Assembly (NCBI GenBank): GCA_040753015.1
Contig: JBFMHM010000001.1
Location: 82,731 to 146,730, forward strand
Length of the DNA stretch: 64,000 nt
Reading direction: 5' to 3'
DNA from: Candidatus Omnitrophota bacterium
GTDB lineage: Bacteria > Omnitrophota > Gorgyraeia > Gygaellales > JBFMHM01
Made by a program: the position numbers and the translations under genes. Under the pieces are notes generated by a model. That model did no database searches and was not told the DNA's origin. It saw nothing but the letters and a program-made list of their open reading frames with translations. Below are positions 31,193-55,460 of the stretch, piece by piece (position 1 is the first letter of the stretch; each line of letters begins with the position of its first letter).

Positions 31193-32491
31193 ATGGAAAA
31201 AATAATTTCATTATGTAAACGCCGGGGTTTTATTTTTCAAGGGTCAGAAATTTATGGCGGCCTTGCAAATACTTGGGATTATGGCCCACTAGGCGTAGAA
31301 TTAAAAAATAATGTAAAACGCGCTTGGTGGAAGGCAAGCATTTATGACCGCTTTGATATGTATGGGCTAGATAGCGCAATTTTAATGCATCCAAAAACTT
31401 GGGAAGCATCAGGCCACACAAAAAACTTTTCAGATATTTTAGTAGATTGCAAGACGTGTAAAAAACGCTTACGGGCCGATAAGATTAAAGGAATCTGTCC
31501 GGAATGTGGCGGCAAAGAATTTACAGAAGGCCGGCCGTTTAATTTAATGTTTAAAACCGAGATTGGCGTAGTTAGCGACGCAACATCAATTGCTTATCTT
31601 CGCCCAGAAACTGCCCAAGGAATATTTGTAAACTTTCTAAATATACTTGATTCAATGCATCCAAAACTTCCTTTTGGAATTGCCCAAATTGGAAAATCTT
31701 TCCGCAATGAAATTACTCCGGGAAATTATACCTTTCGCACGCGCGAATTCGAACAAATGGAAATTGAATATTTCGTTAAGCCAGAGGCTGCGGAAAAATA
31801 TTATAATGAGTGGATAGAATCAAGATTCAATTGGTATACCAGTTTAGGTATAAAAAAAGAAAACTTAAGGATTAGGCCGCACGAAAAAAATGAACTTGCA
31901 CACTATGCTCTTGCCTGCTCTGATATTGAATATAAATTCCCCTTTGAAGGCGGAGATTGGCAAGAGCTTGAAGGAATTGCCAACCGTACAGATTTTGATT
32001 TAAAACAACATTCTGAATTCAGCGGAAAGAAATTAGAATATTTCGATGAGGCAACGAAAGAAAGATTCTTACCTTATATTATAGAACCTTCTGGAGGAGT
32101 TGACCGGGCAACGCTTGCATTCTTAGTTGATGCGTATTGCGAAGAGGAAGTAAAAGAGGCAACGCGAGTAGTCCTAAAATTGCACCATAAACTATCCCCA
32201 TATAAAATTGCTGTTTTTCCACTTTTGAAAAATAGGCCGCAAGTAGTTGAGCTTGCAAAAAAAATCGCACTTGATTTGAAAAAATATTTTATTACAATTT
32301 ATGATGATACTGGAGCAATTGGAAAACTTTACCGCAGGCAAGATGAAATAGGAACGCCTTTTTGCGTAACAGTAGATGTGCAATCAACGGAAGATCAAAA
32401 AGTTACAATTAGAAATCGCGACACAATGTTACAAGACAGAATAGATATTAATAACTTAAAAAAATATTTTGAAGAAAAAATAATTATATAA
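31193..32491 (+). CDS. glyQS: glycyl-tRNA synthetase (alpha2 type)
   Basis: RRGFIFQGSEIYGGLANTWDYGPLG and FRNEITPGNYTFRTREFEQME are present, with a C-terminal anticodon-binding domain. Confidence 0.88.
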   Translation: MEKIISLCKRRGFIFQGSEIYGGLANTWDYGPLGVELKNNVKRAWWKASIYDRFDMYGLDSAILMHPKTWEASGHTKNFSDILVDCKTCKKRLRADKIKGICPECGGKEFTEGRPFNLMFKTEIGVVSDATSIAYLRPETAQGIFVNFLNILDSMHPKLPFGIAQIGKSFRNEITPGNYTFRTREFEQMEIEYFVKPEAAEKYYNEWIESRFNWYTSLGIKKENLRIRPHEKNELAHYALACSDIEYKFPFEGGDWQELEGIANRTDFDLKQHSEFSGKKLEYFDEATKERFLPYIIEPSGGVDRATLAFLVDAYCEEEVKEATRVVLKLHHKLSPYKIAVFPLLKNRPQVVELAKKIALDLKKYFITIYDDTGAIGKLYRRQDEIGTPFCVTVDVQSTEDQKVTIRNRDTMLQDRIDINNLKKYFEEKIII

Positions 32492-32546
32492 ATGTAGGAA
32501 ACGGTTTACAAACCGCTCCCTACGCAAATTGAAAGGGGCAGAAAAA

Positions 32547-35276
32547 ATGGCAACAAAAAAATATGTTTACTTCTTTGGTGGTGGAAAAGCAGATGGTAAC
32601 GCAAGTATGAAAAATTTACTCGGAGGAAAAGGGGCAAATCTAGCTGAAATGGCAGGACATAAAGATTTAAGGCTTCCTGTTCCGCCCGGTTTTACAATTA
32701 CAACTGAAGTTTGCACATATTACTATAAAAATGGAAAAAAATACCCAAAAGAATTAAAAGCCCAAGTGCAAAAATCTCTGGCTAAAGTCGAAACTTTAAT
32801 GGGTAAAAAATTTGGCTCAACCGAAGACCCACTTTTAGTTTCAGTGCGTTCTGGCGCAAGAAAATCAATGCCGGGTATGATGGAAACAGTTTTAAATGTC
32901 GGCCTTACAGAAAAAACAATACCCGGATTAATTAAAAAAACTGGCAATGAAAGATTTGCCTATGATGCCTACAGAAGGCTTCTTACAATGTACTCTGATG
33001 TTGTTATGGAAAAAGCAGCAGGCATTGAACCAAAAAGCGATCATTTAGGTATTCGTAAACAACTTGAAAAAATAATGGATACGGTTAAAGAAGAAAAAGG
33101 TTGTACACAAGATACTGACTTAACTGTTGAAGATTTAAAAAAAATTTGTTCTGCCTACAAATCAAAGATTAAAGAAGTTCTAGGTAAAGAATTTCCTGAT
33201 GACCCCTATTTGCAACTTTGGGGTGGCATTGGCGCAGTGTTTGCATCATGGAATGGCAAAAGAGCAATTTCCTATCGCAAAATCGAAGGCATACCAGAAG
33301 AATGGGGCACAGCAGTAAACGTGCAATCTATGGTGTTTGGAAACATGGGCAATGCATCCGCTACTGGTGTTGCATTCAGCAGAAATCCAGCAAATGGTGA
33401 GAATAAATTTTACGGAGAATATCTAATTAATGCTCAGGGTGAAGACGTTGTTGCTGGCATTAGAACTCCCGCGCCAGTAAACGAAGATTCAAAAAATGAA
33501 CAAAACAAAGCATTGACTAGCCTAGAAAAAGCAATGCCTAAGCTCTATAAAGAATTGTTCGAAATTAAAAAACGCCTCGAGAATCATTATCGCGATATGC
33601 AAGACATTGAGTTTACAATTGAAAATGGCGTACTTTATATGCTGCAATGCCGCGTTGGAAAACGCAACGGGCCTGCTGCTGTTAAAATGGCAGTAGATAT
33701 GCATAAAGAAAAATTCATTTCAAAAGAAGAAGCTGTATCTAGAGTAACACCGTCACAGCTTGATGAATTGCTCCATCCAATGATCGACCCAAAAGAAGAA
33801 TTGAAAGTTAAACCGCTTGCAAAAGGGCTTCCTGCAGGCCCAGGTGGTGCTGTTGGCATGGCTGTGTTTAATGCAAAAGATGCTGTTGAATGGGCAAAAC
33901 AAGGTAAAAAAGTAATTTTAGTGCGTGAAGAAACAAACCCTGAAGACGTCGAAGGCATGCGTGCAGCACAAGCAATTCTTACATCGCGCGGCGGCATGAC
34001 ATCGCACGCAGCGCTTGTTGCCCGTGGTTGGGGAAAATGCTGCATTGTAGGTTGTGGCGCATTAGAGGTAGACGCACATAAAAAAGAATTACACGTAGAT
34101 GGAAAAATTATCAAAGAAGGAGGCTGGCTCACATTAAACGGCACAAAAGGCGCTGTTTATGAAGGCAAGCTTGCAATGATAGATGCAACCGAAGAAAATA
34201 AACTGCTTAATGATTTTTTAAAACTTGCTGATGGTATTCGTAAACTTAAAGTCCGGACAAATGCTGATACTCCAGAAGATGCAAAAAAAGCCCGCGCCTT
34301 TGGAGCAGAAGGCATTGGCTTATTTAGAACCGAACATATGTTTTACGGTGCTGGTTCTGATGAACCGCTTTTTAAACTTCGTAAAATGATTGTTTCATCA
34401 ACACAAGAAGAGCGCCAAAAAGCAGTTGATGAATTATTTCCTCACGTAAAACATGATATAAAACAAACGCTTGAAGCAATGGCAGGTTATCCTGTAACTA
34501 TTCGACTACTTGATCCGCCGCTTCATGAGTTTATTCCAAAAGAAAAAGATAAACTAGAAGAGCTCGCAAAAAGCTTAAATATTACAATGGAACAGCTTGA
34601 AAAACGCGCAGAAGCATTACACGAATCAAACCCAATGATGGGCCACCGCGGGGTAAGGCTTGGCGTAACCTATCCAGAAGTAACTAAAATGCAAGTACGC
34701 GCAATTCTAGAGTCTGCAGCAGAGTTAGTAAAAGCGGGATTAAAAGTTGAGCCAGAAATAATGATTCCTGTTGTCTGCGATAAAAAAGAGCTTGATAATC
34801 AATATACACTGATTACTTCCATATATAAAGAAGTTCTTGCAAAATACGGAATGAAGAAACTTAATTATATGGTCGGCACAATGATTGAAATTCCGCGCGC
34901 AGCCTTAATGGCAAGCGAAATCGCTCAAAGCGCTGAATTTTTCTCATTTGGCACAAATGACTTAACACAAATGACTTTTGGTTTTTCAAGAGATGATATT
35001 GGCGGGTTTTTGCCAGATTATCTGAATAAAGGAATCTTGCCGGGTGATCCATTCCAAAGTATTGATAAGAATGGCGTAGGTGAATTAATTGATATCGGCA
35101 TTAAACGCGGAAGAAAAACAAAACCAAACTTAAAAATAGGCATCTGCGGTGAACATGGCGGCGAACCACAATCGGTTGAATTCTGCCACAAGGTTGGAAT
35201 GAATTATGTCAGCTGTTCGCCGTTTAGAGTGCCAATTGCGCGCCTAGCAGCTGCACAAGCAGTATTGAAGAGGTAA
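32547..35276 (+). CDS. ppdK: pyruvate, phosphate dikinase
   Basis: The start is revised to [13 protein letters not shown]; the track ORF begins at 32529. The catalytic His region reads [15 protein letters not shown], the C-terminal PEP-utilising domain has GICGEHGG, and the length matches. Confidence 0.92.
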
Positions 35277-35277
35277 C

Positions 35278-36099
35278 ATGGAAGCGATACGCGCTTACCT
35301 TAAAGAAATAAAGAATATCCCTCTTCTTAAACCTGAGGAAGAAATTGAACTTGCAATAAAAATTAAAAAAGGCAATAAAGCCGCGCGTAAAAAGATGATA
35401 CAGTCAAACCTACGGCTTGTTATTAATGTTGCAAAGCGCTATATTCATTTTGGCGTTCCTTTAATGGATTTGATAGAAGAAGGGAATATAGGGCTAATGA
35501 GAGCAGTAGACAAATTTAATCATAAAAAAGGATTTCGCTTCTCTACTTATGCAACATGGTGGATAAGACAAGCAATAACACGTTTTATTGCCGATCATGG
35601 TAAATTAATCCGTGTTCCTGTTTATATGAACGATCAGCTCGTGCAATGGAAAAAGACAATTAATGATTTAAAACAAAAGTTAGGCCGTGAACCATTACAA
35701 GAAGAAATAGCAAAAAAAATGCAAGTACCAATATCAAAAGTAGAAGAAATTAGCAAATGGGTCATTAAAACAGGTTCCCTAGAAGCCCCTATTGGCGACA
35801 ACGAAGAAGGCCAAATTATAGACCTCGTTGAAAATACCCAGGTAGCCAGCCCAGACGAAGAAGTAACCAAGCTTTTAAAACATGAACGTATAGGTAATTT
35901 ATTAGCAAAGGTAACTGATAAAGAAAAAAAGGTTCTAAATCTACGATTTGGCCTAATCGATCAAAAACCAATGACGCTTGCACAAGTAGCTAATAAACTT
36001 AAAGTTTCTCGTGAACGAATAAGGCAAATCGAAGAAAATGCACTTTCAAAATTAAAAAACATGATAAATCAAGAAAATAGAGAACAAAAGGTATATTAA
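35278..36099 (+). CDS. RNA polymerase sigma-70 family factor (group 1/2-like, short)
   Basis: Region 2 reads [37 protein letters not shown]. Region 4 reads [15 protein letters not shown]...[20 protein letters not shown]. Confidence 0.85.
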
Positions 36100-36100
36100 A

Positions 36101-36634
36101 ATGAGCAAGCAATCTGATTTTAAAAAATATATTCGTAATATACCCGACTTCCCGAAAAAAGGAATAATTTTTCGCGATATTACTACGTTAATTGAAAATA
36201 AAATTGCTTTTAAAAAAGCAATTGACTTAATGGCGAAACAATTTAAAAATGTAAAAATTGATAAAGTTGCTGGCGTTGAAGCGCGAGGGTTTATTTTTGG
36301 CGGGGCAATTGCCTATAAGCTAGGTGTTGGTTTTGTACCAATCAGAAAAAAAGGGAAACTTCCATATAAAACTAAAAGCATTAGCTATTCGCTAGAGTAC
36401 GGCGTAGATACTTTAGAAATACATGAAGATGCAATTAAAAAAGGCGAACGAGTTTTAATTATCGATGACCTTTTAGCAACCGGGGGTACAGTAAAAGCAG
36501 TTTGCGATTTAATTGATAGTGTCGGCGGAAAGATCATTGGTATAGAGTTTTTAATTGAGCTTGTTGATTTAAAAGGCCGCCAGAAATTAAGCAAATATCC
36601 GATTGTTTCATTTGTTGAGTTTGAAGGCGAATAG
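36101..36634 (+). CDS. apt: adenine phosphoribosyltransferase
   Basis: FRDITTLIENK and VLIIDDLLATGGT (the PRPP motif) are present. Length is 177 aa. Confidence 0.88.
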   Translation: MSKQSDFKKYIRNIPDFPKKGIIFRDITTLIENKIAFKKAIDLMAKQFKNVKIDKVAGVEARGFIFGGAIAYKLGVGFVPIRKKGKLPYKTKSISYSLEYGVDTLEIHEDAIKKGERVLIIDDLLATGGTVKAVCDLIDSVGGKIIGIEFLIELVDLKGRQKLSKYPIVSFVEFEGE

Positions 36635-36635
36635 C

Positions 36636-36743
36636 GCCCCCGTAGCTTCAGCCAAAGGCTGATAGGATAGACTAAGTTATGCCCCCGTAGCTTCAGCCAA
36701 AGGCTGATCCGCCTCTGGCGGACAATAGGATAGACTAAGTTAT
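36636..36743 (+). repeat. two tandem partial copies of the tRNA-Arg 5' half with palindromic inserts (45-nt and 63-nt units)
   Basis: Unit 1 (36636-36680) reads GCCCCCGTAGCT, then the hairpin TCAGCCAAAGGCTGA, then TAGGATAGACTAAGTTAT. Unit 2 (36681-36743) is the same plus an extra hairpin, TCCGCCTCTGGCGGA. The tRNA acceptor, D-stem and D-loop parts are identical to the downstream tRNA. Confidence 0.7.
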
Positions 36744-36816
36744 GCCCCCGTAGCTCAATAGGATAGAGCAGCGGTTTCCTAAACCGCGCGCGGGCGTTCG
36801 AATCGTCCCGGGGGCA
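36744..36816 (+). tRNA. tRNA-Arg (anticodon CCT)
   Basis: Folded by hand. Acceptor GCCCCCG/CGGGGGC, D-arm GCTC-AATAGGATA-GAGC, anticodon arm GCGGT-TTCCTAA-ACCGC, a 4-nt variable loop, T-arm GGGCG-TTCGAAT-CGTCC and discriminator A. No CCA is encoded. Confidence 0.8.
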
Positions 36817-36878
36817 CATAAATACAGAATTAAGAGTTAAGAAATAAGAATTAAGATAAAATCAAATACAAATAATTT

Positions 36879-37520
36879 ATGTTTGATTTACACACGCATT
36901 CAATATTAAGTGATGGGCATTTACTTCCAAGCGAAGTTGCCCGTCGATATGAAGAAAAAGGTTACAAAATAATTGCCATAACCGACCATGTTGACCGTTC
37001 AAACATAGAATTTGTCTGCAGTTCAATTCTAGAGTTCACAAATTCATTTAGGAACAATAAAATTAAAGTTTTACCAGGAGTAGAACTCAGTCACATTCCA
37101 CCTGACCAGTTCCTGCCGCTTGCAGAATATGCTCGTTCCCGTGGAATAAAAATTATTATTGGCCACGGAGAAACTATAGTTGAGCCGGTAATCCCCGGCA
37201 CAAATCGCGCAGCAATTCAAGCTGATGTAGATATTTTAGCCCACCCCGGATTAATTAGTAAAGAAGATGTAAAACTTGCTGTAAAAAAAGGCACATTTTT
37301 AGAAATTACTTCCCGCCGCGGCCACTCATTAACTAACGGACACATTGCAAAACTTGCTTTAAAATATAAAGCAAAAATTTCTATTGACTCCGATTCCCAC
37401 GGCCCAGAAGATATCTTAAATCCCGAAGACAAATTAAAAATCGCTCAAGGCAGCGGCCTATCCTTAGAACAAATAGCCCTCGCTTATAAAAATTTAGAAA
37501 ATTTTCTAAAAAATAAATAA
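36879..37520 (+). CDS. PHP-domain metal-dependent phosphoesterase (histidinol-phosphatase family)
   Basis: MFDLHTHSILSDGH, ITDHVD and HPG are the PHP His/Asp motifs. Confidence 0.65.
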   Translation: MFDLHTHSILSDGHLLPSEVARRYEEKGYKIIAITDHVDRSNIEFVCSSILEFTNSFRNNKIKVLPGVELSHIPPDQFLPLAEYARSRGIKIIIGHGETIVEPVIPGTNRAAIQADVDILAHPGLISKEDVKLAVKKGTFLEITSRRGHSLTNGHIAKLALKYKAKISIDSDSHGPEDILNPEDKLKIAQGSGLSLEQIALAYKNLENFLKNK

Positions 37521-37609
37521 TCTGTGGTATAATATATTGCAAAAATAAGAGGATATTAGAATGCCTGAGATATCAAGATTTTATTGAGCCATTAAATTAG
37601 GAGAAGGCA

Positions 37610-37876
37610 ATGATAGATTTAAAAAAAGCAGAATATTTAGGTGATTACAAAATAAGACTTACTTTTGAAGACGGTAAAAGTGGCGTAGTTGACTTTGCGT
37701 CTTATATTGATAAAAAAGGAGTCTTTAAAAAATTCGAGGATTTATCTTTTTTTAAAAATTTTGTTATTGATCCTGAAGTTAAAACACTTATGTGGGGGAA
37801 TGAAATTGATATAGCACCTGAAATACTTTATTCTCAAGCAACCCACTCTTGTCTTCCAAAATGGATGCAGAGTTAA
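37610..37876 (+). CDS. DUF2442-family protein
   Basis: EYLGDYKIRLTFEDGKSGVVDFASYI is the typical DUF2442 N-terminus. Confidence 0.55.
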   Translation: MIDLKKAEYLGDYKIRLTFEDGKSGVVDFASYIDKKGVFKKFEDLSFFKNFVIDPEVKTLMWGNEIDIAPEILYSQATHSCLPKWMQS

Positions 37877-37889
37877 CCCGGAGGAGAAA

Positions 37890-40445
37890 ATGAAAAAAAT
37901 ATTTTTTAGTTTGGTTGTTTCTATAACTTTAATTTGTTTGGGCACTATGTCCGCTGATGCACAAATCAAGAAACAACCTTATAATACAAAAGGTAATCCC
38001 GTGGCTATGCCAAGGCTTTCTATGGAAATAAGTTTACAAAATCAAAATCAACAAGCAATCAATGAAATTCGCGCGGGGCAGCCATTTAATATTCGTGCGA
38101 TCGTAACAAATAGCGGTAACGCTGAAGGTAGAATAACGCGACTTGAACTTTCAGATAATGGGCAGCGTATTAATCCACCGCTCAATACAATTGAAGTTCA
38201 AAATAATGGCCGTATGCCTTATAAAGCAACTAGTTGTGAAGTAATTATTCGTAATATAGTTATTCAGCAACAAGGCCAGCATACAATAACTTTACAACTA
38301 CGAGATGGCAATAATAACATTATCCCGGGTAATAATTCAGTTCCTTTACAAGTAATCGCCCCACAAGTTCAGCAACCAGCCGGAAGAGCTAGTATTGATA
38401 TTATTGATCCCATAGAAATAAATCCTAATCCCCTACGACCTGAGGATATATTTATTATTAATATTAATGCAAGAAACTTTGGTGCCGCGCACGGAATAAT
38501 AGAAAGAGTAGAAGTTACAGATAATTTTAATGTTATTCCTAACCTAATTCTTAATGTTAATGCACAACACGGACGCATCGTAATTCCTAACGATAATCAG
38601 AGTTACCCAATTTCGGTTCAATGCCAGCCGTTACAAACAGGAAGACATACAATACGTGTTAGATTTTTTTACAGCAGTGCTGCAGAACATCAAGAACATA
38701 TTTTTGATAGTCCGTACTCTGATCCAGTTATTCTAGAAATATCTGAACCGCAAGCACAGCCAAGCTTTGATAATCCCCAGCCTAGAATAATTGCGATAGC
38801 ACCAAGTCGCCCCAGTATCAATGAACCTTTTGGCGTAACTACAAGAATTACAAATTCCGGCAATGGTCCAGCTACAATAACTATGTCACGAATCTTTGAA
38901 GGCGATAATACTATTGGCACTAATAATGAAAGATTTGAAATAAACCCCAATATTACTATTAATAAAAATATAGCTTGCCAAGGTATAAGGCATCCCGGCG
39001 AACATACTATAGTTACTAAATTTTTTGATATTAATAATACGCCTATTTCAAGCGAACCGTTTACTTTTAATGTTATAGCAGCTAATTTTAACGAATCTTC
39101 TATATCGCGAGCTAGCCATTCAATCATTGCGAATCAATTATTTACAGTAACAGCAAACATTACGAATTCTGGAAACGGCCTAGGTACAATAAATACATCG
39201 ACAATTTTGTTACCAAACGGCAACCCTATAAGCACAGGAAGAAATGTATCACAACGTATTAATATCAAACCAGGCGAAACTGTTACTAAAGATATACAAT
39301 GTTTTATTATGCAGCAAGGTGAATATGATATAATTTTGGAACTAACTGACTCTAATAATAATGTTTATCGAAGCACGCCATTTCATATTGTCGTTGAACC
39401 TGCGCCACAAAGATTACCTAATCTTTCTATTGCCCGCGTATTTGCTACGATAGAAAACCGAGAAATCGATATAGTGCCGTCCAATACACCTTTTACTATT
39501 TCTATCGTAGTAAGCAATAGAGAAGGACAAGCAGATGGAATACTCTCTAATATCGAAATCAGAGATAATAATGCAATAATACCCTTGCCTGCGCCAAATC
39601 GTAATGTAACTGTTACTCGCGGCCAAGAACTAACTATACCAATCCGTATTCCAAACGGCATACAACAACCTGGTGAGCATAGGATAATGGTAACCCTTAT
39701 CGATAACAATAATAATTCTATTCCCGGCAATAATTTAGTTGCTCTACAAGTCCAAGAAGCACCTCGGCCACAGCCCCAGCTTGCTATATCTAACATTGCC
39801 ATAACAAATTTACAAAATCAGCCAATTAACTCCATTATCGCAGGCCAGCCTTTTAATATTGCCGTAACCGTAAATAATTCAGGCAACGCAGAGGGTGTTA
39901 TACAACGGGCGGAAGCGATAGATAACAATAATCTCATGAATCCGCAACCTCAAGTTAATCTTTCGAATAATGGACGCATTCCCGCTGGTGAACGAAATTA
40001 TAGAATAGAGTTTCTTAATGCAATAATTCAAAATCCCGGACCTCATCAAATCAACGTAAGGCTTACTGATTCAAGTGGAAATAGATACGATGTTAACCCG
40101 ATTATCCTACAAGTCCAAGAAGAACCCCGGCCAGAGGTTATAATTAATTCTGTAACTGCTACAGCTAATATCAACCTAAGAGATAGGCCCCAACCAGTTA
40201 CAGTAAATATTGAAGCAAGAAGCAATAATGCTCCTAGTACAATTAATGTAGAAATATTAGACCCGGATAACAACAGGCTAGAATTAGTTAGAAACATATT
40301 GCTTAATGTAAATGTAGATACCAGAGTACCACCAATAACAACATCACAAAACGCCCCTAGATCAACAAGACAAGTAAGGATTATAATCACCAGAGAAGAT
40401 AACACTGTTATTTTTGATCAACAGATAGATATTGCAAATCAATAG
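37890..40445 (+). CDS. secreted multi-domain CARDB-like repeat protein
   Basis: Signal peptide MKKIFFSLVVSITLICLGTMSADAQ. At least seven modules each contain a (T/V)N(S/F)GN(A/G)xG(R/T/V)I strand (NSGNAEGRI, NSGNGPATI, NSGNGLGTI, ...). The modules are separated by LQVQEAPRP-type linkers. Confidence 0.65.
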   Translation: MKKIFFSLVVSITLICLGTMSADAQIKKQPYNTKGNPVAMPRLSMEISLQNQNQQAINEIRAGQPFNIRAIVTNSGNAEGRITRLELSDNGQRINPPLNTIEVQNNGRMPYKATSCEVIIRNIVIQQQGQHTITLQLRDGNNNIIPGNNSVPLQVIAPQVQQPAGRASIDIIDPIEINPNPLRPEDIFIININARNFGAAHGIIERVEVTDNFNVIPNLILNVNAQHGRIVIPNDNQSYPISVQCQPLQTGRHTIRVRFFYSSAAEHQEHIFDSPYSDPVILEISEPQAQPSFDNPQPRIIAIAPSRPSINEPFGVTTRITNSGNGPATITMSRIFEGDNTIGTNNERFEINPNITINKNIACQGIRHPGEHTIVTKFFDINNTPISSEPFTFNVIAANFNESSISRASHSIIANQLFTVTANITNSGNGLGTINTSTILLPNGNPISTGRNVSQRINIKPGETVTKDIQCFIMQQGEYDIILELTDSNNNVYRSTPFHIVVEPAPQRLPNLSIARVFATIENREIDIVPSNTPFTISIVVSNREGQADGILSNIEIRDNNAIIPLPAPNRNVTVTRGQELTIPIRIPNGIQQPGEHRIMVTLIDNNNNSIPGNNLVALQVQEAPRPQPQLAISNIAITNLQNQPINSIIAGQPFNIAVTVNNSGNAEGVIQRAEAIDNNNLMNPQPQVNLSNNGRIPAGERNYRIEFLNAIIQNPGPHQINVRLTDSSGNRYDVNPIILQVQEEPRPEVIINSVTATANINLRDRPQPVTVNIEARSNNAPSTINVEILDPDNNRLELVRNILLNVNVDTRVPPITTSQNAPRSTRQVRIIITREDNTVIFDQQIDIANQ
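40134..40445 (+). repeat. 312-bp segment identical to 41553-41864 (shared 3' end of the two CARDB-like genes)
   Basis: Compared base by base, with a constant offset of 1419. Only the stop codons differ (TAG versus TAA). Confidence 0.8.
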
Positions 40446-40478
40446 ATAGTACGTAAGATTATAATGAATGGAGGCTGC

Positions 40479-41864
40479 ATGAAAAAAATATTTTTTGTTT
40501 TTGTTGTACACGTAGTATTAACTTGTTTAATTAATACTACAGCATACTCACAAGGAATTTTAAACCAAGATAACCAAAATCTTATTATTAATTCAGTTAT
40601 TATTGATCCTCAAATACCAGAGGCTAACCAACTTTTTAATATAAATGTTGAATTAAAAAATATTGGTAAGCAAAATCTTACTTTTGATGTCATAGAAGCA
40701 CAGACCCAACCCGAAGGAGTTATTTGGCGTCTAAGCTTTCCGAATGCAAGAACCATATCTCCAAAAACTAGTTTTTATTCCGGGCTAATTGAATGTCGTC
40801 CATTAGTCAATTCCGGGAAGCGAACATTAACAATAGTTGTAAAAAGTAGGAATAGAATAATTACACAAAAAAATATTGAAATAAAAGTTAGAAATGCAGC
40901 TGGGCCACTACTTTCAATTACTAATGTAATCGCTAGTCCTATTAATCAAAATCAGGGTTTTACCGTCACGGCTACAGTAAGAAATAGCGGGAATGCCGAA
41001 GGACGTATTATATCTACAACACTGCGAGCACAAGGAAATAATTTTATACTACAAAATAATATTGATAGGCTTGTAAGATCGCGATCAGAAGAACAAATTG
41101 AAATACGTTCACCAAATGGTTTTCCTACTCCAGGATTCAAAAATATGCTTTTAATTATTGAAACTGCCGATAACGCAAGAATACCTCCATTTCCTTTTGT
41201 AATAGAAGTTATTGAAACCAGAGCGCAAATTGGAATTATTAATCCTATTGAGATAAATCCTAATCCCGCTAACACAGGACAAGCATTTGATATTCTTACA
41301 AGAGTGCAAAATATCGGAAATGAAGGAGGAAGCATACGACACTTAATCGTAACGGATAACAATTTTCATCTTTTTGATGAAAGACCCAATGAAGTTATTC
41401 CCGCGGGTGAAAATCGAGTAATTACAACACGTATCCAAAACGGCATTCAAAATCTCGGCCCGCACCAGGTAAGCGTGCGCCTAACTGACTCAAATAATTA
41501 TCTCCATACCAGTAACCCAGTTATTATCCAAGTCCAAGAAGCACCTCGGCCCGAGGTTATAATTAATTCTGTAACTGCTACAGCTAATATCAACCTAAGA
41601 GATAGGCCCCAACCAGTTACAGTAAATATTGAAGCAAGAAGCAATAATGCTCCTAGTACAATTAATGTAGAAATATTAGACCCGGATAACAACAGGCTAG
41701 AATTAGTTAGAAACATATTGCTTAATGTAAATGTAGATACCAGAGTACCACCAATAACAACATCACAAAACGCCCCTAGATCAACAAGACAAGTAAGGAT
41801 TATAATCACCAGAGAAGATAACACTGTTATTTTTGATCAACAGATAGATATTGCAAATCAATAA
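40479..41864 (+). CDS. secreted CARDB-like repeat protein, paralogue of 37890-40445
   Basis: The start is revised to MKKIFFVFVV, with GGAGG 5 nt upstream. The signal peptide, NSGNAEGRI and NIGNEGGSI modules, and a C-terminal 104 aa identical to the upstream gene are present. Confidence 0.65.
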   Translation: MKKIFFVFVVHVVLTCLINTTAYSQGILNQDNQNLIINSVIIDPQIPEANQLFNINVELKNIGKQNLTFDVIEAQTQPEGVIWRLSFPNARTISPKTSFYSGLIECRPLVNSGKRTLTIVVKSRNRIITQKNIEIKVRNAAGPLLSITNVIASPINQNQGFTVTATVRNSGNAEGRIISTTLRAQGNNFILQNNIDRLVRSRSEEQIEIRSPNGFPTPGFKNMLLIIETADNARIPPFPFVIEVIETRAQIGIINPIEINPNPANTGQAFDILTRVQNIGNEGGSIRHLIVTDNNFHLFDERPNEVIPAGENRVITTRIQNGIQNLGPHQVSVRLTDSNNYLHTSNPVIIQVQEAPRPEVIINSVTATANINLRDRPQPVTVNIEARSNNAPSTINVEILDPDNNRLELVRNILLNVNVDTRVPPITTSQNAPRSTRQVRIIITREDNTVIFDQQIDIANQ

Positions 41865-42131
41865 CATTGAAGCTGACTTTAAAAAATTTTATATATTTTA
41901 TAAAAAAAACTTGACAATATCAATTTAATATGATAAAAATTAAATATAATATATAATTTTAAACACTAGAGATAACTTAAATTATGGCAGAAAGGAGGGA
42001 TGAAAAAATCTTTTTCTTAAAGATTATGCGCCTAGAGTTATCAAAATCTAGTGATATATAAAAGAAAATACCTTAGGGTTTAACCCTAGTTCTAAAATAT
42101 AACAAACGTTTTTTTAATGTGGAGGATTCAA

Positions 42132-43784
42132 ATGAAAAAAAGTTTATTAATCGCATGTTTAGCGATACTTGCATTTATCGCTATAACTATGCCCTCATAC
42201 GCCGCTGTGCAAAATATTAAGCTAAGCGGTGATTTGTTGATGAGAGGCATCTCTCGCTGGCAATTTGATTTTGTCGGTGACAAAACTGATGACGGAGCAA
42301 CCGTAATGGCTGGCGCAGGGGCTTGGAATGAAAATGGTCAAAATTATTTTATGACAACTGCCAGAGTAAGACTTGATGCTGATTTAACTGATAATGTTTC
42401 TGCAACTGTTAGAGTTCTAAATGAAAGAAAATGGGGTAACAAAGGAACTGATTCAAATCATGCTAATGGAAACCCTGGCTATAAAGCAGGAAGCGGTATC
42501 GATACTAATGATGATAATGTTAGGATTGATCTTGCTTATGCCACGTTAAAAGAATTCCTTTATGCACCATTAACATTAACTATCGGCCGGCAAAGAATGC
42601 AATTCGGCAATGGCATGATTGTTGGTGATTGGGATACAAATCTTGCCGCAACAACTGGTTATGCTACAGCACCTAACCCATCAACAGTAGCTCAAGCTGG
42701 CGGCCCACAAGGCGCTGTTATGAACAGATGGGGCAATTTTGGTTATTATAATCCTGCTCCTGATTTAAGCGAAGATAAATCGTTTGATGCAATCAGAGCA
42801 ACTATTAATTTAGATCCTTTAACAATGGATCTTTTATATGCAAAGTTAGATGAACAAGATCCTGCATTAGCCGATGATCTCGATCTCTGGGGTTTAAATA
42901 CCGGCTATAAGTTTGATTTACCTATACCATTTTTTTCTGAAATTTATTATTTTGGAAAATACCGTGGTAAAGATTATGTTAATGATGATACCGGTGTACT
43001 CTCAGCAGCAGCCGGCGCTACCCGTGAAATCAATAAAAATGATCAAGTACATACGCTCGGTGCAAGAGTGAGCCTCGATCCAGCTGAAAATCTTAATGTT
43101 CAATTTGAACTTGCTGGCCAGGTTGGTAGATACAATCCTCGGTTAGATCCAAATGATAGTGGTGCTTCTACTGTAAATGGTGTAGCAAGAGCTGCATGGG
43201 CAACTGAATTATCTGTTAATTATGATATACCAAAGTGGAAATTCAACCCAAAATTTATGGGTAGTTATGCATTTTTCTCTGGTGATCCGAAAGCAGCTAA
43301 CAGAGATCCTTCTATCGCCCCTGTCGCAGGAAATGCAGCATCATCAACTTCAGGCGCAGAAACATATAATGGATGGGATCCAATGTTTGAAAATCAAACA
43401 TTTGGCCATATTGCCAATGCTTTATTCAAACAAACCAATATGCACATATGGATGCTAAAAAGTTCCTTTACGCCATTACAGGATATCAATGTTGACCTTG
43501 GCTATAGCTATTACAGATTAAATAGGGGTTTTAATCAAGGTGATAGAGTTATCTTAAATGGTTTATTTGGCGGCCGTGCATATTTTATGAATGCACACGA
43601 TCATCTTGGACAAGAACTCGATGCAAACATCACTTACGACTACACTGAAGATGTTCAATTCGGGCTATTAGGAGGATTATTCTTCCCCGGAAATGCATTT
43701 ATGGAAAGTGGTAACGGTGGGCAATTCTTAACAAACCACAAAACAGCATCTGAAGTTATCGGTTCAATGAAAGTAACCTTCTAA
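42132..43784 (+). CDS. putative outer-membrane beta-barrel protein (porin/alginate-export-like)
   Basis: The start is revised to MKKSLLIACLAILAFIAITMPSYA, with GGAGG 6 nt upstream. The body has alternating amphipathic strands rich in Gly, Asn, Tyr and Asp. The C-terminal ...SMKVTF ends in Phe, as in an OMP beta-signal. Confidence 0.55.
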   Translation: MKKSLLIACLAILAFIAITMPSYAAVQNIKLSGDLLMRGISRWQFDFVGDKTDDGATVMAGAGAWNENGQNYFMTTARVRLDADLTDNVSATVRVLNERKWGNKGTDSNHANGNPGYKAGSGIDTNDDNVRIDLAYATLKEFLYAPLTLTIGRQRMQFGNGMIVGDWDTNLAATTGYATAPNPSTVAQAGGPQGAVMNRWGNFGYYNPAPDLSEDKSFDAIRATINLDPLTMDLLYAKLDEQDPALADDLDLWGLNTGYKFDLPIPFFSEIYYFGKYRGKDYVNDDTGVLSAAAGATREINKNDQVHTLGARVSLDPAENLNVQFELAGQVGRYNPRLDPNDSGASTVNGVARAAWATELSVNYDIPKWKFNPKFMGSYAFFSGDPKAANRDPSIAPVAGNAASSTSGAETYNGWDPMFENQTFGHIANALFKQTNMHIWMLKSSFTPLQDINVDLGYSYYRLNRGFNQGDRVILNGLFGGRAYFMNAHDHLGQELDANITYDYTEDVQFGLLGGLFFPGNAFMESGNGGQFLTNHKTASEVIGSMKVTF

Positions 43785-43815
43785 TTAATCAGAAGGAAGC
43801 AATTTATCCCCCGCA

Positions 43816-43847
43816 GAGTTTCTGCGGGGGATTTTTTATTGACAAAA
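43816..43847 (+). terminator. rho-independent terminator
   Basis: CCCCCGCAGAG-TTT-CTGCGGGGG is followed by ATTTTTTATT. Confidence 0.75.
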
Positions 43848-43888
43848 TCTATTGTAGTATATACAATAAGAATAAAGAGAGGAATCAA

Positions 43889-44206
43889 ATGCAGAATGAT
43901 GATGAAATAAAAGAAGGTAAAATATTTGCCTTAATGGGTTATTTGTCAATACTTTGTTTGATTCCGCTTATTCTCAAGAAAGATAATAAATTCGTTTTAT
44001 ATCATGCTAAGCAAGGGCTCGTTATATTTATTATTGAACTAATTCTTATGCTTATAGGAATTTTACCATTTATTGGCTGGCTAATAAGTGTTTTAGGAAC
44101 ATTTTTATGTATGTTAATTTCACTATATGGTATTATTGAATGTTTAATAGGAAACTACGTTAAAATTCCTCTGGTTAGCTATATTGCTTCAAAAATTGAT
44201 TTATAA
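43889..44206 (+). CDS. DUF4870-family small membrane protein
   Basis: ALMGYLSILCLIPLILKKDNKFVLYHAKQGLVIFII matches the DUF4870 (F)HAKQ signature. Confidence 0.6.
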   Translation: MQNDDEIKEGKIFALMGYLSILCLIPLILKKDNKFVLYHAKQGLVIFIIELILMLIGILPFIGWLISVLGTFLCMLISLYGIIECLIGNYVKIPLVSYIASKIDL

Positions 44207-44208
44207 TA

Positions 44209-44685
44209 ATGAATAAAATGAAATTATTAATATTTGTATTATCTACGGTTTTTTTATTTATTAATCCTTATATTTCTTATAGCGAAAAAGCGAAGGACTT
44301 GCAAGCAGTGGTTAGTGAAAACATAACTAATGCAAGATCCCTAAAACAAGAAATTGAATCATTAAATAATTCCTTAAATTGCCAAAGTTTAACAAAAATT
44401 AAATTAGCTTATAAAACACTTTATTCTAAATTTGGCCTGTACGATAAAGAGTTAACTGATTTACTACAAGTATTAATAAACCTGCAAGGCATAGCTCAAA
44501 AAGTTGATGGCCTGTCAAACGGCCTACTTTTACTTACAGTAAGAAATAGCATCGCAAGCGACCTCGATCTATTAAAAAATAATATCTTTAGTATTGAACT
44601 AAATACACTCTTCAAAAAATATCTATTATTAATTAGCTCTCTATTGATTACCCTAATTATCTATTTATACTTTAGAAAACGCTAA
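44209..44685 (+). CDS. hypothetical protein with N- and C-terminal TM helices
   Basis: 158 aa, with a signal/anchor sequence plus a C-terminal TM helix. It starts 3 nt after the upstream stop. Confidence 0.4.
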   Translation: MNKMKLLIFVLSTVFLFINPYISYSEKAKDLQAVVSENITNARSLKQEIESLNNSLNCQSLTKIKLAYKTLYSKFGLYDKELTDLLQVLINLQGIAQKVDGLSNGLLLLTVRNSIASDLDLLKNNIFSIELNTLFKKYLLLISSLLITLIIYLYFRKR

Positions 44686-44687
44686 TA

Positions 44688-45020
44688 ATGGAGTTTGATA
44701 AACGCTCGATCAAGGTTGAATTTTTTAAATCAAGCGGCCCTGGTGGACAGCATAAGAATAAGAAAAAGACTGCTGTGAAGCTTACCTATATACCCACAAG
44801 GGTAACTATCAGAGAAACTCGAGAGCGCTCCCAAACCCAAAACCTCAAAAATGCTCTAAACAAGCTCGATATCAAACTTAAAAAACTGCACAAAAAGGGG
44901 AAAAAGAGGGTAGCAACTAAACCTACAAAAATATCCAGAGAAAACAGACTAAAATATAAAAAATTCATTAGCAAAAAGAAAAAGATGCGGCTAAAAAATA
45001 TTAAACTAGATAATTTATAA
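44688..45020 (+). CDS. arfB: ArfB-like ribosome rescue factor (GGQ peptidyl-tRNA hydrolase domain with basic tail)
   Basis: KSSGPGGQHKNKKKTAV is the GGQ motif. The Lys-rich C-terminal tail is typical of ArfB/YaeJ. Length is 110 aa. Confidence 0.65.
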   Translation: MEFDKRSIKVEFFKSSGPGGQHKNKKKTAVKLTYIPTRVTIRETRERSQTQNLKNALNKLDIKLKKLHKKGKKRVATKPTKISRENRLKYKKFISKKKKMRLKNIKLDNL

Positions 45021-45730: not shown

Positions 45731-46033
45731 TTAAGTAATAATAGCAATTTGAATTAGTGATAAATCAATACCACCTGTAGGCTCTACTGAAGCCATTTTG
45801 GTACCAGATTGACCTGGATTTGGTAAGGCTTTTTGGGCTTGATTGGCTATAATTTCTAGTGCTTCTTGACCGCTAGGATTACCCGCAACCAACTGCGCAG
45901 TATCCGGCTTAACCCCGGCTTTAAGAAGTTTGGTTATAGCTAGATTCGTAAACATATTAATAAATTGTTTTATATCCTTTCCTAGCACAAGTATCTGCCT
46001 GGTCAGGAGCGCCGGGGGTGACGTGCCAGTCAC
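45731..46033 (-). CDS. hypothetical ORF overlapping the 3' end of the giant gene (possibly a frameshifted continuation)
   Basis: 100-aa ORF that overlaps 45957-51140 by 77 nt in another frame. No motif is recognised. Confidence 0.2.
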   Translation of the reverse strand: MTGTSPPALLTRQILVLGKDIKQFINMFTNLAITKLLKAGVKPDTAQLVAGNPSGQEALEIIANQAQKALPNPGQSGTKMASVEPTGGIDLSLIQIAIIT

Positions 46034-49000
46034 GACCCTCTTTACCTCTGTTAAAGAATTGTTGAGTTAGGCGGATGATTTGATAGTGATCTAGGTCTGT
46101 ATTTTCAAGTAATTCGTGGAGGATATATTCGTCAATTAAGTCATTTGGTAAACCATTCACTCCCTCCCTTTCACTTAAATATTGTATTAGATTAATTGCA
46201 AGAGCACTTTCAGCGCCTAAGAAGTAACGGTTAGGGCTTTCTACTTCGGCGTTAAACCAGTTAAATGGACAAGTTTCAGCTTCAGGCAGACCGAAGGCCT
46301 CGCCAGTTTTTAGTGGCGGGCCGCGTAAGCGATTGAGTAAACCTTGCGCGTCTTGTTGTGACATGCCTGCGTTGATCAATAAAGCTTCTATTTCAGCCCC
46401 TCTGTTATCCAACAACGCCTGTATTCGCCTATGCGCTAAAACAACAACTTCGCGGTTATCTTGTGCTACTTGGCTTGAGTTTGCCTTGATTGCTTCCCTC
46501 TTCCGCGCAAGTTCCTCTTCGCTGTAGCCACGCGATATTTCGCCGGTAGGAGTTTTAGTCCTCGCGTTATTAATATCGCGAATTATTCTCTCTATATCAT
46601 TTCTGACTTCCCTAGAACCTCGATTAAAAGCTGTTTCTAATGCAGGTAATGCTACTTTGCCGATTTTAATAAGGGATTCGATCGCAGAGTCGCGAACAGT
46701 AGGATCTTTCAAACACTCAATTAAAGACTCAACTGCTGGCCGACCGGTTTTAATAAGTGCTTCTCTGGCGTTATAGCGGACAGACCCATCCTCATCCTTC
46801 AAACATTTAATCAAAGGCTCAACTGCACGAGGATCGCCGATTTCGCCAAGGGCTTTGATAGCGGATTGACTGAGCAAATTGTTATCATATCTCAAGCATG
46901 CAATCAGACGCTCGACTGCTGGCCGACCAATTTTAATAAAGGCCTTAACGGCAGCTTGACGAACATTTTTATCCTCATCTCTCAGACACACAATTAGAGG
47001 ATCGACTGCCGGCTGGCCAATTTTAGCAAGGGCCTGGGCAGCTGCGTGGCGGATATCTTCGTTTTCATCTCTTAAGCACGTAATTAACGGTTCGACTATC
47101 AATGGATGACGACTCTCGCCAAGATTACGAATAATAGATTTGCGATCTGTTTCATCATCGGGATTAAGAAAACTGACCTGCCTTGCAACATCTTCTGGCA
47201 TCCCCAAATTACTTAAAAGTGTAATTAACCTACCCGTATCTATCATTAGATTTAGGAGATGAGGCGCATTAACTCTAGTAAAATCCAAATTAGTATGTGA
47301 TAATATATTGATTAAATTTCTACGCCAAGTAGCCCATTGTTCAATTTCTGGATTAAATGAGCGTTTTAATAATTGTAATAAATGTTTGTCCATAAGTTTT
47401 CGAGCTTCATCAGTACTTATCGCAGCTTCGGCATACGCAATTAAATCATTCACAACGTATGCATTACCTCTTTGCGCTAGAATGACAAGGATATCTTCTA
47501 TGTCATCCTTTGCCCGGGAAAGCCGCCATAATCTTTTACACTGTTCCTCTGTAAAATTTTTAGGATGATGTTCTGCTATTTGTCTAAGGCTAGTAGATAT
47601 TTCAGCGCTATATTTTGTAGTTTCTTGTTTATGTAGTCGGATAATTTGTAGTACCTTACGCATAGTATTTTTCGACTCTATTAACTCTAGGTATTCCAAC
47701 ATTACATCAATTGCCTTTAACCTCCCCAACTCAGCAATTGCATCTTTGCGCGCTTGATCTAAGTCAGTGCGTAAAGCAATAAGCACACGAAAGTCTGCTT
47801 TTAGTTTATGCCAATTATCATCAGTAGTTTCGATGATTTGAGCACATCTTTTAACTGCTTGCTCTCTTTGGCCTTTAGTCAAGTCGGCTGCAAGTAACAC
47901 GCCAGTTAGCTGGAATTCAAGCTCTGTGTTATATTCTTGAGGCCGTGTTTTAATAAGCGCCTCATGGAGTTCTCTTGCTTGATCTAGCGCTTCTACTGCC
48001 GGGCCGAGAAGAATACGTTCTGCTAATCTGCGTGAGTCTTGATCATATAGCTGTTGATTATGAACCATAACATCAAGCGTGCCTACTGCTTTAGGCTGGT
48101 TTATTCTAGCTAAGAGCAATGATAAAAATTCAACGCATCTTATTTTATCCGATAAGTCATAACCAGCTACAGCTAATCTAGGCTGGTTTTGGCCTAGTGT
48201 ATTAACAAAAATAGCTATTGCCTGAGGTTCTTGTACGGTTATAAGCTCTACCAAAAGATCAAAAGCAACAATGCCTTTATCTTTGGCAAAGCCTGCTAGT
48301 GCCTTAACAACATCTGCTGGTAGACGGCCAAGCATACATATATCCGAGACTCTTCTTAGTTCTCTTGCGTATATCTGTTGCGGTGAGTCACTATCTGTTG
48401 TTCTTGCTATAGCTGCAGCACTGGCTTGTTGTTTTAATTCTTGCAGCTTATTATAACTTCTACTAAGTTCAGTTTGTATTGCTTCTATGTCATCAATACT
48501 CTTTTGAAAGCTTATAGTTTGTGTTTGGCCTCTAGTTATAGTTCCTTGTTGCCTTATTGTATCTACTAAAACAATAAGCCTAGCTACAGTAGCAAGCCCA
48601 GCAATCTTATCTTCAGTTTTCATATGGGTTCTAATAGCAGCAATGTAAGGCTTGTATCTTCTTGTTTCCATCATATGGGCAAGAACATAACAAGATAATG
48701 GTAGATTAGCAAGGACTTCTTCAGTAAGCATTCCTTTGTATTGAGCAAGGCAAAGCCTAGCCCTTGCAGAGTCTAAAAAACTTAGCCAAGTTATTAGGCT
48801 TACCACATCATCAGAAGTCCTGGCAAAGCTTTTCATAAATACTAAAGTTGCTGTTTCTGTATCTAAGTAAGTGAGTAATTCTAATACAGCTGGTTGTATA
48901 TCTAACTGTCTTGTGAGATTAATTAGCATCTTAACAGCTTGCTCTCTATCACGGTTAGTACTCATAAGCAGCGCTGTTTGGCTAAACGCTTCTTGTCTTT

Positions 49001-54002: not shown

Positions 54003-54509
54003 TTATAAAGATATTTTTTTAATATCTAGAGACTTGCAGAGCAACAATAATGTATTAAGCGTAATATTCTTTTTGCCCTCTTCAATTTTTGAAATATCCG
54101 GCTGATCAATACCGGTAACCAATGCTAAGTCCTTTTGACTTAAACCTTTCTCTATGCGCGCAATTTTAATTGTTTTTCCAATATTTAAAAATGATATTGG
54201 TACTGCCCCTTTAAATGTATGTTTTTTTTGAATACCTTTTTTTTCCAAAAGTTGATCGTAAACAGTTTGCCACCACTGCCGAAAATCTGATTTCTTTTCA
54301 ACTTTAATCCAATATAATTTTACCCTAGTCCAATTTTTAATAAATTCGTCTTTGGAAATAACAGAAAAAATTATTTTTGGCTCATCACATCGAGAAAATA
54401 AATTGACCAAGCGAATAATAAATTTAGGATGATTTGGATCTTTAAGAATTACTTTGGTTTCCTTTAAGGCCTTATCATTTAAGTCCCAAAAATATTTCGA
54501 TATATCCAT
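54003..54509 (-). CDS. XRE-family HTH protein with N-terminal domain of unknown function
   Basis: The C-terminal HTH reads IARIEKGLSQKDLALVTGIDQPDISKIEEGKKNITLNTLLLLCKSL. Its ATG overlaps the stop of the upstream gene (ATGA). Confidence 0.6.
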   Translation of the reverse strand: MDISKYFWDLNDKALKETKVILKDPNHPKFIIRLVNLFSRCDEPKIIFSVISKDEFIKNWTRVKLYWIKVEKKSDFRQWWQTVYDQLLEKKGIQKKHTFKGAVPISFLNIGKTIKIARIEKGLSQKDLALVTGIDQPDISKIEEGKKNITLNTLLLLCKSLDIKKISL

Positions 54510-55295: not shown

Positions 55296-55460
55296 AATTT
55301 ACACAAGACTCCCCTTTCTTCGTATATTTTTGCTTCGTCTGGTACGATCCAGACACGGAAGATTGTGGGGATAGATACGGTTCGACTGTTCGTCAGTTCT
55401 TCAGTTCTTTTGATTCTCTCCGTATGTTCCCGTGGCTTATAATAAAGTATACACTATAAA
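55296..55460 (-). pseudogene. degenerate 5' remnant of a giant-gene paralogue: promoter copy B plus an internally deleted coding fragment
   Basis: 55413-55460 is identical to 51144-51191. 55300-55412 is about 85% identical to 50560-50680, which encodes ...EELTNSRTVSIPTIFRVWIVPDEAKIYEE, compared with NSRTVSIPTTFRVWIVPDKAEVYED in the intact gene. The first 450 nt or so of coding sequence are missing. Confidence 0.5.

Follow-up and report, generated by a model that had tools for sequence, protein, structure and literature searches.

What could have placed two incomplete copies of a tRNA gene, each broken by GC-rich palindromes, immediately in front of the intact gene? The question is raised by a stretch of 64,000 nucleotides from contig JBFMHM010000001.1 of a Candidatus Omnitrophota bacterium (the whole of this 64-kb stretch, with a GC content of 35%, is hereafter the window), in which the gap between an apt gene and the gene for tRNA-Arg(CCT) is filled by tandem 5'-half units of that same tRNA. 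We propose, with a probability of roughly 60%, that this array arose by a partial duplication of the tRNA 5' end followed by its colonization by miniature palindromic insertion elements. Our best reading of the palindromes themselves is that they constitute a dispersed family of miniature insertion elements, common to this bacterium and uncultivated phages.

A sequence-only reading of the window had described two serial 5'-half units ahead of tRNA-Arg(CCT), each with GC-rich palindromes, and string identity confirms that these tandem units exist. The 109 nt between the apt stop codon and the tRNA consist of a single C followed by unit 1 and unit 2, which together make up 108 bases (36636-36743). 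Unit 1 is composed of tRNA nucleotides 1-12, the palindrome TCAGCCAAAGGCTGA, tRNA nucleotides 16-24 and the linker CTAAGTTAT; unit 2 is composed of tRNA nucleotides 1-12, TCAGCCAAAGGCTGA, a second palindrome TCCGCCTCTGGCGGA, tRNA nucleotides 13-24 and the same linker. The additional hairpin in unit 2 and the common ending of the two units thus stand as first described. Deletion of the 30-mer formed by the two palindromes from unit 2 leaves exactly tRNA nucleotides 1-24 followed by the linker, and the hairpins are therefore clean insertions. The linker, which is missing from the real gene, is also the 9-nt spacing between the tRNA copies, and the 12-mer GCCCCCGTAGCT recurs three times, at 36636, 36681 and 36744, where 0.05 occurrences are expected. 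Two details required correction. The units had been said to copy the acceptor 5' strand, D-stem and D-loop exactly, but of the 3' strand of the D-stem they contain no more than its two opening bases, and the D-arm is thus incompletely reproduced. Likewise, a hairpin had been said to replace the CAA of the D-loop in both units; this is so in unit 1, whereas unit 2 retains CAA after its second hairpin. The linker is, in addition, partly complementary to GTAGCTT just downstream of it (36735-36756 and 36672-36693), and the predicted hairpin encloses the GCCCCC of the next copy, a possible sign that snap-back synthesis provided the template for the filler.

Whether used with default settings, with introns of up to 200 nt or with pseudogene thresholds, ARAGORN calls tRNA-Arg(CCT) at 36744-36817 as the sole tRNA of the region, and Rfam at a permissive threshold returned nothing credible beyond this intact tRNA. 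In both programs the units fail the test of a cloverleaf, which calls for the two acceptor strands together with anticodon arm and T-arm and allows for an intron. An intron-containing or permuted tRNA extending across the units is ruled out, as every ARAGORN setting calls the intact tRNA alone. The units are non-functional relics and not tRNAs, as had been supposed of the fragments. Membership in a known RNA family was likewise considered and rejected, there being no Rfam 15 match for the units, the palindromes or the phage modules described below apart from the tRNA, and a role as promoter or terminator was set aside because neither a sigma-70-like promoter nor an intrinsic terminator is predicted in the units. 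The region folds far better than shuffled sequence (z = -3.97). In the lowest-energy fold the acceptor strand of unit 1 pairs with the real 3' acceptor strand, and such a predicted fold would hinder tRNA maturation rather than aid it.

The palindromes are not restricted to this locus. They belong to a family with two fixed stems and free loops, TCAGCC-N3-GGCTGA (A-type) and TCCGCC-N3-GGCGGA (C-type), which mostly occur as a tandem pair; hairpin motifs give 3-4 matches in the window against 0.09-0.12 expected. Within IMG/VR, a 21-mer spanning the hairpin pair of unit 2 is matched exactly once, in contig L161, where the full 30-mer identical to that of the window lies in unrelated flanks at the 3' end of a small open reading frame (ORF; the 30-mer is at 2407-2436). 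L161 is a Mu-like phage contig encoding a transposase, a portal protein and a terminase (PHROGs), and it carries both this 30-mer and a 20-mer palindrome found in a related tRNA locus (L059, see below). No significant match to the 30-mer was obtained among GenBank phages or plasmids, and a search for relatives of L161 with an empty site returned the L161 contig itself as the one match. When viral contigs were scanned with a degenerate pattern of two neighbouring YCNGCC-N3-GGCNGR units, 46 sites were recovered, mostly in contigs of 37-55% GC, and at least 15 of these are perfect double hairpins. Almost all of the latter join an A-type to a C-type stem in either orientation, with invariant stems and variable loops, and the contigs that contain them have additional single copies, several per contig. 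Most phage copies separate genes of the same direction and precede a ribosome-binding site by 5-25 nt, which suggests that they may also serve as punctuation at the RNA level, in stability or processing. Some copies are in frame inside ORFs and read ...PPxADQPxAE..., and in two homologous phage ORFs with ~95% identical flanks the acidic linker holds a C-type hairpin in one case and a C-type plus A-type pair in the other. Among viral contigs none of the 33 matches of A- or C-type hairpins beside GTAGCT, as would be expected in a tRNA D-loop, is tRNA-like. The 20-mer of L059 occurs at 54 distinct viral-contig sites, with up to six or more per contig.

Within the window the second site of the family is a giant gene in which a near-identical hairpin had been noted in frame at 50286-50300. 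The hairpin is indeed in frame, but its true position is 50292-50306 and it is directly preceded by a second one, CCCGCCTGAGGCGGG. The double hairpin falls in a length-variable linker following a conserved ILAKWYK motif, and the homologue P0001 (81% identity) lacks it. It is nearly identical to a pair in phage contig L175, from which it is distinguished by a change of T..A to C..G that leaves the outer base pair intact. The contexts of the palindromes thus comprise intergenic DNA, protein linkers, where they encode Ala/Gly/Pro-rich peptides in frame, and tRNA or tRNA-like sequences.

Further observations concern the giant gene and its product. A third GC-rich palindrome, CCCCCTCTTTGGTAAAGAGGGGG, is present at 50478-50500, likewise in a variable linker, and in phage contigs L228, L229 and L161 the 20-mer palindrome is bordered by hairpins of a similar kind, CCCCTC...GAGGGG. 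The protein P0004 of an Omnitrophota metagenome-assembled genome (MAG; locus tag AB1755_02240) is a 'partial' record that starts exactly at the hairpin-encoded peptide NVSAKGGPASGG; it is 97-99% identical to the giant protein for ~94 residues and divergent afterwards, and its start may reflect recombination or an assembly break at the palindromes. On the minus strand at 55301-55411, flanked by genes for an AbiEii toxin (54509-55219) and a beta-CASP RNase (55520-56935), lies an unannotated stretch with 68% protein identity to residues 157-193 of the giant protein, which looks like a gene fragment or pseudogene.

Direct evidence for insertion comes from a phage tRNA. In phage contig L234 a tRNA-Met(CAT) at 2239-2330 contains the 20-mer in its variable loop, and ARAGORN calls this tRNA both with the 20-mer, as a 92-nt tRNA with a long arm, and without it, at 72 nt. 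Contigs L285 (12794-12829) and L286 (6831-6866) have the same tRNA-Met at the same locus without the 20-mer, and their downstream genes share ~76% identity with the L234 ones. In L207 (~8616), a fourth relative, the 20-mer is accompanied by a 13-nt deletion of the adjacent T-arm. L234 on the one hand and L285 and L286 on the other therefore represent a filled and an empty site of the sister palindrome without target duplication. The comparison of unit 2 with the live tRNA-Arg(CCT) is the equivalent filled/empty pair for the module of A-type plus C-type hairpins. Target duplications were found at none of the insertions in the window, L245 (see below) and L234. An insertion of the kind seen in the phage tRNA-Met might sometimes yield functional long-arm tRNAs.

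Tests of the same architecture in other genomes showed that palindromes recurrently interrupt partial tRNA copies. The second, "sister" palindrome CCTGCCTGCCGGYAGGCAGG interrupts pseudo-copies of tRNA 5' halves in one phage and one other Omnitrophota genome. In the Omnitrophota-type locus L059, a 5' pseudo-half comprising tRNA nucleotides 1-28 lies 158 nt upstream of tRNA-Arg(CCT) and has the 20-mer CCTGCCTGCCGGTAGGCAGG in its D-loop, and a downstream 3' pseudo-fragment has TCCGCCACAAAGCTTTGGCGGA (TCCGCCA...TGGCGGA) in its T-loop. Viral contig L245 contains a tRNA 5' pseudo-half with a perfect 20-mer in the D-loop, between GGTA and GAGC; between 494 and 1416 mobile elements are stacked in a single tRNA gene, which reads, in order, the 5'-exon pseudo-copy with the palindrome, an ORF for an 88-aa GIY-YIG protein, the real 5' exon and a group I intron (RF00028, 86 bits), the latter interrupting the real tRNA gene and itself containing an HNH ORF. 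The association of GIY-YIG with the palindromes was seen in L245 only. In three assemblies of one species (L066, L124 and L126) a leader together with nucleotides 1-38 of a tRNA-Arg is tandemly duplicated, and a GC-rich hairpin of 36 nt forms a clean insertion in the D-loop of the duplicated 5' half; the two leaders of L066 have diverged by ~20%, with the tRNA part identical. These three and L128 further contain a full-length pseudo-tRNA-Pro in which 9 nt are inserted in the anticodon stem and the hairpin TCCCGATACATCGGGA takes the place of the T-arm. This pseudo-tRNA-Pro(GGG), at 8057-8196 in L066 and 1110-1200 in L128, lies ~200 nt upstream of the real gene and is otherwise identical to it. 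L066 and L128 also differ at the level of strains: a 5' segment has been replaced, and a GC-rich D-loop insert of 52 nt forms the breakpoint. Altogether, five of the six independent longer tRNA pseudo-fragments that we observed carry a GC-rich palindrome, the exception being a 26-nt 3' copy in L010.

The tRNA-Arg(CCT) locus was also compared across relatives. The closest relatives of the apt product, with 68-71% protein identity, come from Candidatus Omnitrophota MAGs in genome and metagenome collections, and the order apt followed by tRNA-Arg(CCT) is conserved in 25 of the 34 related loci scanned. A distance of 6-41 nt separates apt from the start of the tRNA in about 12 related Omnitrophota loci, and none of these has partial copies. 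The units are therefore lineage-specific relics and not a conserved element, and this argues against a conserved function. Other relatives show a different kind of repeat, in which the 3' end of the tRNA is repeated directly 100-250 nt downstream of tRNA-Arg(CCT) (L010, L020, L021, L084 and L085, with a tandem pair in L086). The intervening units may be miniature integrated elements or attachment-site (att) scars, and the locus is unstable across the phylum and a hot spot of rearrangement in relatives. A 213-aa PHP-domain protein is conserved directly 3' of the tRNA (36879-37520 in the window, 17797-18438 in L059); Pfam matches it weakly to RNase P subunit p30, at 27 bits, which is below the cut-off of 35.

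Table 1. Positions of the tRNA-Arg(CCT) array, its palindromes and comparable features in other contigs (coordinates refer to the window unless a contig is given).
Feature	Coordinates	Strand	Basis or remark
apt (adenine phosphoribosyltransferase-type) gene	36101-36634	+	Pfam Pribosyltran E = 4e-20; stop codon 1 nt before unit 1
Unit 1, pseudo 5' half of tRNA-Arg(CCT), 45 nt	36636-36680	+	string identity after removal of the 15-mer
A-type 15-nt palindrome TCAGCCAAAGGCTGA, 6-bp stem, 3-nt loop	36648-36662	no strand	stem family also in phage contigs
Unit 2, pseudo 5' half, 63 nt	36681-36743	+	minus the 30-mer, exactly tRNA nucleotides 1-24 plus CTAAGTTAT
30-nt double-hairpin module, A-type TCAGCCAAAGGCTGA plus C-type TCCGCCTCTGGCGGA	36693-36722	no strand	identical 30-mer in phage contig L161
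Intact tRNA-Arg(CCT) gene, the one tRNA of the window	36744-36816	+	ARAGORN; Rfam RF00005 61.1 bits, full-length match
Double hairpin CCCGCCTGAGGCGGG plus TCCGCCTTTGGCGGA in giant gene 45957-51140	50277-50291 and 50292-50306	no strand	in frame, encodes SAKGGPASGG on the minus strand, that of the giant gene
Downstream units, ~100-250 nt, each ending with a tRNA 3'-end copy	L086 3740-3955; L010 1860-2054; L020 10769-10885; L085 3606-3755		
A- or C-type hairpins just upstream of a ribosome-binding site and start codon	L169 4781, 8255, 11619; L193 8180; L182 3966; L272 ~1380		

Based on these observations we propose that nucleotides 1-24 of the tRNA would at the outset have been tandemly duplicated, with the 9-nt filler CTAAGTTAT at the junction, to give a dead 5' half upstream of the intact gene. 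The 30-nt module would then have inserted cleanly between nucleotides 12 and 13 of the dead copy, where it could persist because such a copy is not under selection; in the live gene it would have been purged. The resulting 63-nt unit would subsequently have been duplicated again, and the upstream copy would have lost 18 nt, namely the C-type hairpin and CAA. As the A-type hairpin occurs at the same site and with the same loop in both units, the insertion would have preceded the duplication of the unit, and since CAA is kept by unit 2 only and its exact regain is implausible, unit 1 would have arisen by deletion. We infer this order of events, together with active mobility of the elements and the cleansing of the live tRNA by selection. 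The insertion itself may have been catalyzed by a hairpin-recognizing nuclease or transposase acting in trans, as proposed for repetitive extragenic palindromic (REP) sequences, or may have resulted from template switching in replication or repair. One of the two explanations in the sequence-only reading, that small palindromic elements invade both RNA genes and coding sequence, is thus sustained by the clean insertions, the fixed-stem family of phages and the filled and empty tRNA-Met site.

Several observations weigh against this scenario. It accounts neither for the 9-nt filler nor for the origin of the first duplication, and it leaves unexplained the near-universal presence of palindromes in the longer tRNA pseudo-fragments. 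No inserting enzyme or mechanism was found. Adjacent direct repeats of at least 7 nt, taken as target-site duplications, flank only 9% of 20-mer sites, against 1.2% in the control, and often in DNA rich in tandem repeats. Insertion into the loops of larger hairpins was considered and dropped, as flank complementarity at the 20-mer is not above control. The identity of the 30-mer with that in L161 was similarly discounted as a sign of recent transfer: AAA and TCT are frequent loops among its members, and loop identity is accordingly weak evidence of recent exchange. Within a single phage, moreover, the hairpins share longer flanks and a regular position upstream of ribosome-binding sites, a placement that also fits a conserved regulatory cassette. 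Finally, the family is present at just two loci of the window. A more far-reaching version, which we regard as tentative and on balance unlikely, is that the palindromes of 15-20 nt (A-type, C-type and 20-mer) are undescribed ultra-small mobile hairpins that circulate between phages and hosts and prefer the D-, variable and T-loops of tRNAs, the 5'-half duplications being mechanistically coupled to them. The half-duplication could then be a by-product of insertion or repair, or could rescue a damaged gene, and tRNA loci like the present one would, if this were true, document a continuing struggle of tRNA genes with hairpin elements.

The other explanation originally put forward, that the units are scars of repeated integration and excision, finds no direct support. 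It would involve a phage or integrative element with an attachment site in the 5' part of the tRNA that supplied a replacement half, each unit being a remnant left junction with hairpins of phage DNA, and the interior having later been deleted. The status of tRNA-Arg(CCT) as a hot spot with 3'-end repeats in relatives is in keeping with this, as are the GIY-YIG ORF lodged between the 5' pseudo-half and the real intron-containing tRNA of L245, the predominance of the hairpin family in phage contigs and the D-loop breakpoint of the segment replaced between L066 and L128. However, no integrase, transposase or phage gene was detected among the ORFs examined at 31193-45020 (reaching ~5.5 kb to the upstream side of the tRNA and 8 kb to its downstream side), and none was detected in the longer apt-to-tRNA gaps of L059 and L012. 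The 9 identical bases between copies would demand two identical near-total deletions; tRNA nucleotides 13-24 resume after the hairpins, such that the homology is interrupted and not ended or flanked by them; and viral contigs contain no donor junction of the form GTAGCTTCAGCC... or AAGTTATGCCCCCGTAGCT. Integrases that target tRNAs are known to duplicate the 3' part of the gene, whereas the part copied here is the 5' end. We accordingly consider scars an unlikely source of the array as a whole, with an integration event being possible as the origin of the first duplication.

A function in cis appears very improbable for the units, whether they were to signal processing or termination between apt and the tRNA, to act as a decoy for a factor that binds tRNA, or to be bound by a dimeric protein recognizing TCMGCC-N3-GGCKGA. 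The marked stability of the predicted fold speaks for it, as do the D-loop-palindrome pseudo-halves of four independent lineages and the L066 duplication, in which the leader has diverged and the tRNA part has not; the strict stems and free loops that many phage contigs share, often shortly before a ribosome-binding site, keep this reading alive at least for the phage copies. Yet the tRNA abuts apt without the units in about 12 loci, the type of palindrome, the insertion site and the copy length differ in every lineage, no promoter- or terminator-like site or Rfam family is discernible, the predicted pairing of unit 1 with the real 3' acceptor strand would harm maturation, and the hairpins also occur inside ORFs. 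An assembly artefact, in which strain variants or chimeric reads were joined into a false tandem array, is harder still to credit. The organism is uncultivated and the assembly very probably metagenomic, palindromes and short repeats are known trouble spots, and the 'partial' P0004 begins at a hairpin-encoded peptide. Against this, the units differ from each other in a structured way, the 9-nt linker is not present in the real gene, the palindromes are in frame within coding sequence, and analogous structures are present in independent assemblies (the four contig records L066, L124, L126 and L128, as well as L059 and L245). Partial duplication followed by palindrome insertion remains our preferred account.

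In form these elements most closely resemble, by analogy, the GC-rich hairpin and double-hairpin elements of AT-rich mitochondrial genomes. Like the mitochondrial GC clusters, the double-hairpin elements of Allomyces and the hairpin elements of sponges and Volvox, they are very short GC-rich hairpins, often paired, in AT-rich genomes. The AT-rich window, the tandem pairs, the intergenic, ORF and tRNA contexts and the filled and empty site extend this analogy, by which homology is not implied. Paquin and colleagues reportedly interpreted the mitochondrial double-hairpin elements as selfish DNA in 2000. To our knowledge neither sharing between phage and host nor a recurrent association with tRNA half-copies has been described for the mitochondrial elements, which further differ in being confined to organelles and in having unrelated sequences. 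They are described as occurring in intergenic regions, structural RNA genes and coding regions and are read as selfish DNA (PMC2800124, PMC2670323).

REP sequences and the bacterial interspersed mosaic elements (BIME) that they form offer a bacterial parallel, as they too are short, GC-rich, dispersed palindromes, often tandem or composite, and are thought to be moved in trans by a hairpin-recognizing enzyme (RAYT in the case of REP). REPs are characterized as 20-40 bp, extragenic, high-copy and bearing a GTAG or CGTC tag (PMC3733652, PMC2817692). In contrast to such imperfect palindromes of 20-40 bp, the elements described here are perfect palindromes of either 15 nt, with 6 bp in the stem and 3 nt in the loop, or 20 nt, they lack the tag (the GTAG 2 nt upstream in the window belongs to the tRNA, and the phage flanks are unrelated), and copies of them, few in the 64 kb, are placed within tRNA sequences and ORFs. 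The placement within ORFs speaks against REP membership, for which an extragenic position, more than 100 copies per genome and a RAYT gene would be expected; the ~18 window ORFs scanned include no RAYT. Rickettsia palindromic elements (RPE), which the palindromes also resemble functionally, are restricted to Rickettsia chromosomes and measure ~100-150 bp; the present elements are ten times shorter and are common to phages and a free-living or episymbiotic phylum. Fragments of tRNA at att sites share with the units a direct repeat of part of a tRNA beside the intact gene, and 3'-end repeats occur at this same tRNA in relatives, but here the 5' 24 nt are repeated, 9 nt without any element separate the copies, the palindromes interrupt the homology and no integrase-encoding element is bounded by the repeat. 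The non-canonical introns and split tRNAs of archaea also place extra sequence in the D-loop, T-loop or variable region; those, however, are complete genes spliced via a bulge-helix-bulge, whereas the bacterial copies described here are interrupted and have no 3' half. Miniature inverted-repeat transposable elements (MITE) are defined by terminal inverted repeats, internal sequence and a target duplication of fixed length, and here the palindrome is the whole element. Our literature search recovered no paper that contains these palindrome sequences or that ties together Omnitrophota, tRNA and palindromes, and no account of 15-nt palindromes with fixed stems and free loops that are common to phages and a bacterial chromosome or recurrent in tRNA half-copies. 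The hairpin family is apparently undescribed.

Should the palindromes prove to be genuine insertion elements, they would rank with the smallest discrete mobile units seen in bacteria and phages, each consisting of one 6-bp stem and a 3-nt loop and usually paired with another. They would provide a tractable test case for whether tiny palindromes spread through a hairpin-recognizing nuclease or through template switching, and would call for caution in tRNA and gene annotation, as well as in assembly, at such palindromes. Their sequence could serve as a tag that links uncultivated phages to Omnitrophota hosts. In proteins they would be tolerated because either orientation encodes small or flexible residues, and at tRNA genes they would mark or create dead fragments. 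Taken as true, this would mean that such elements cross the boundary between phage and host in a poorly known phylum.

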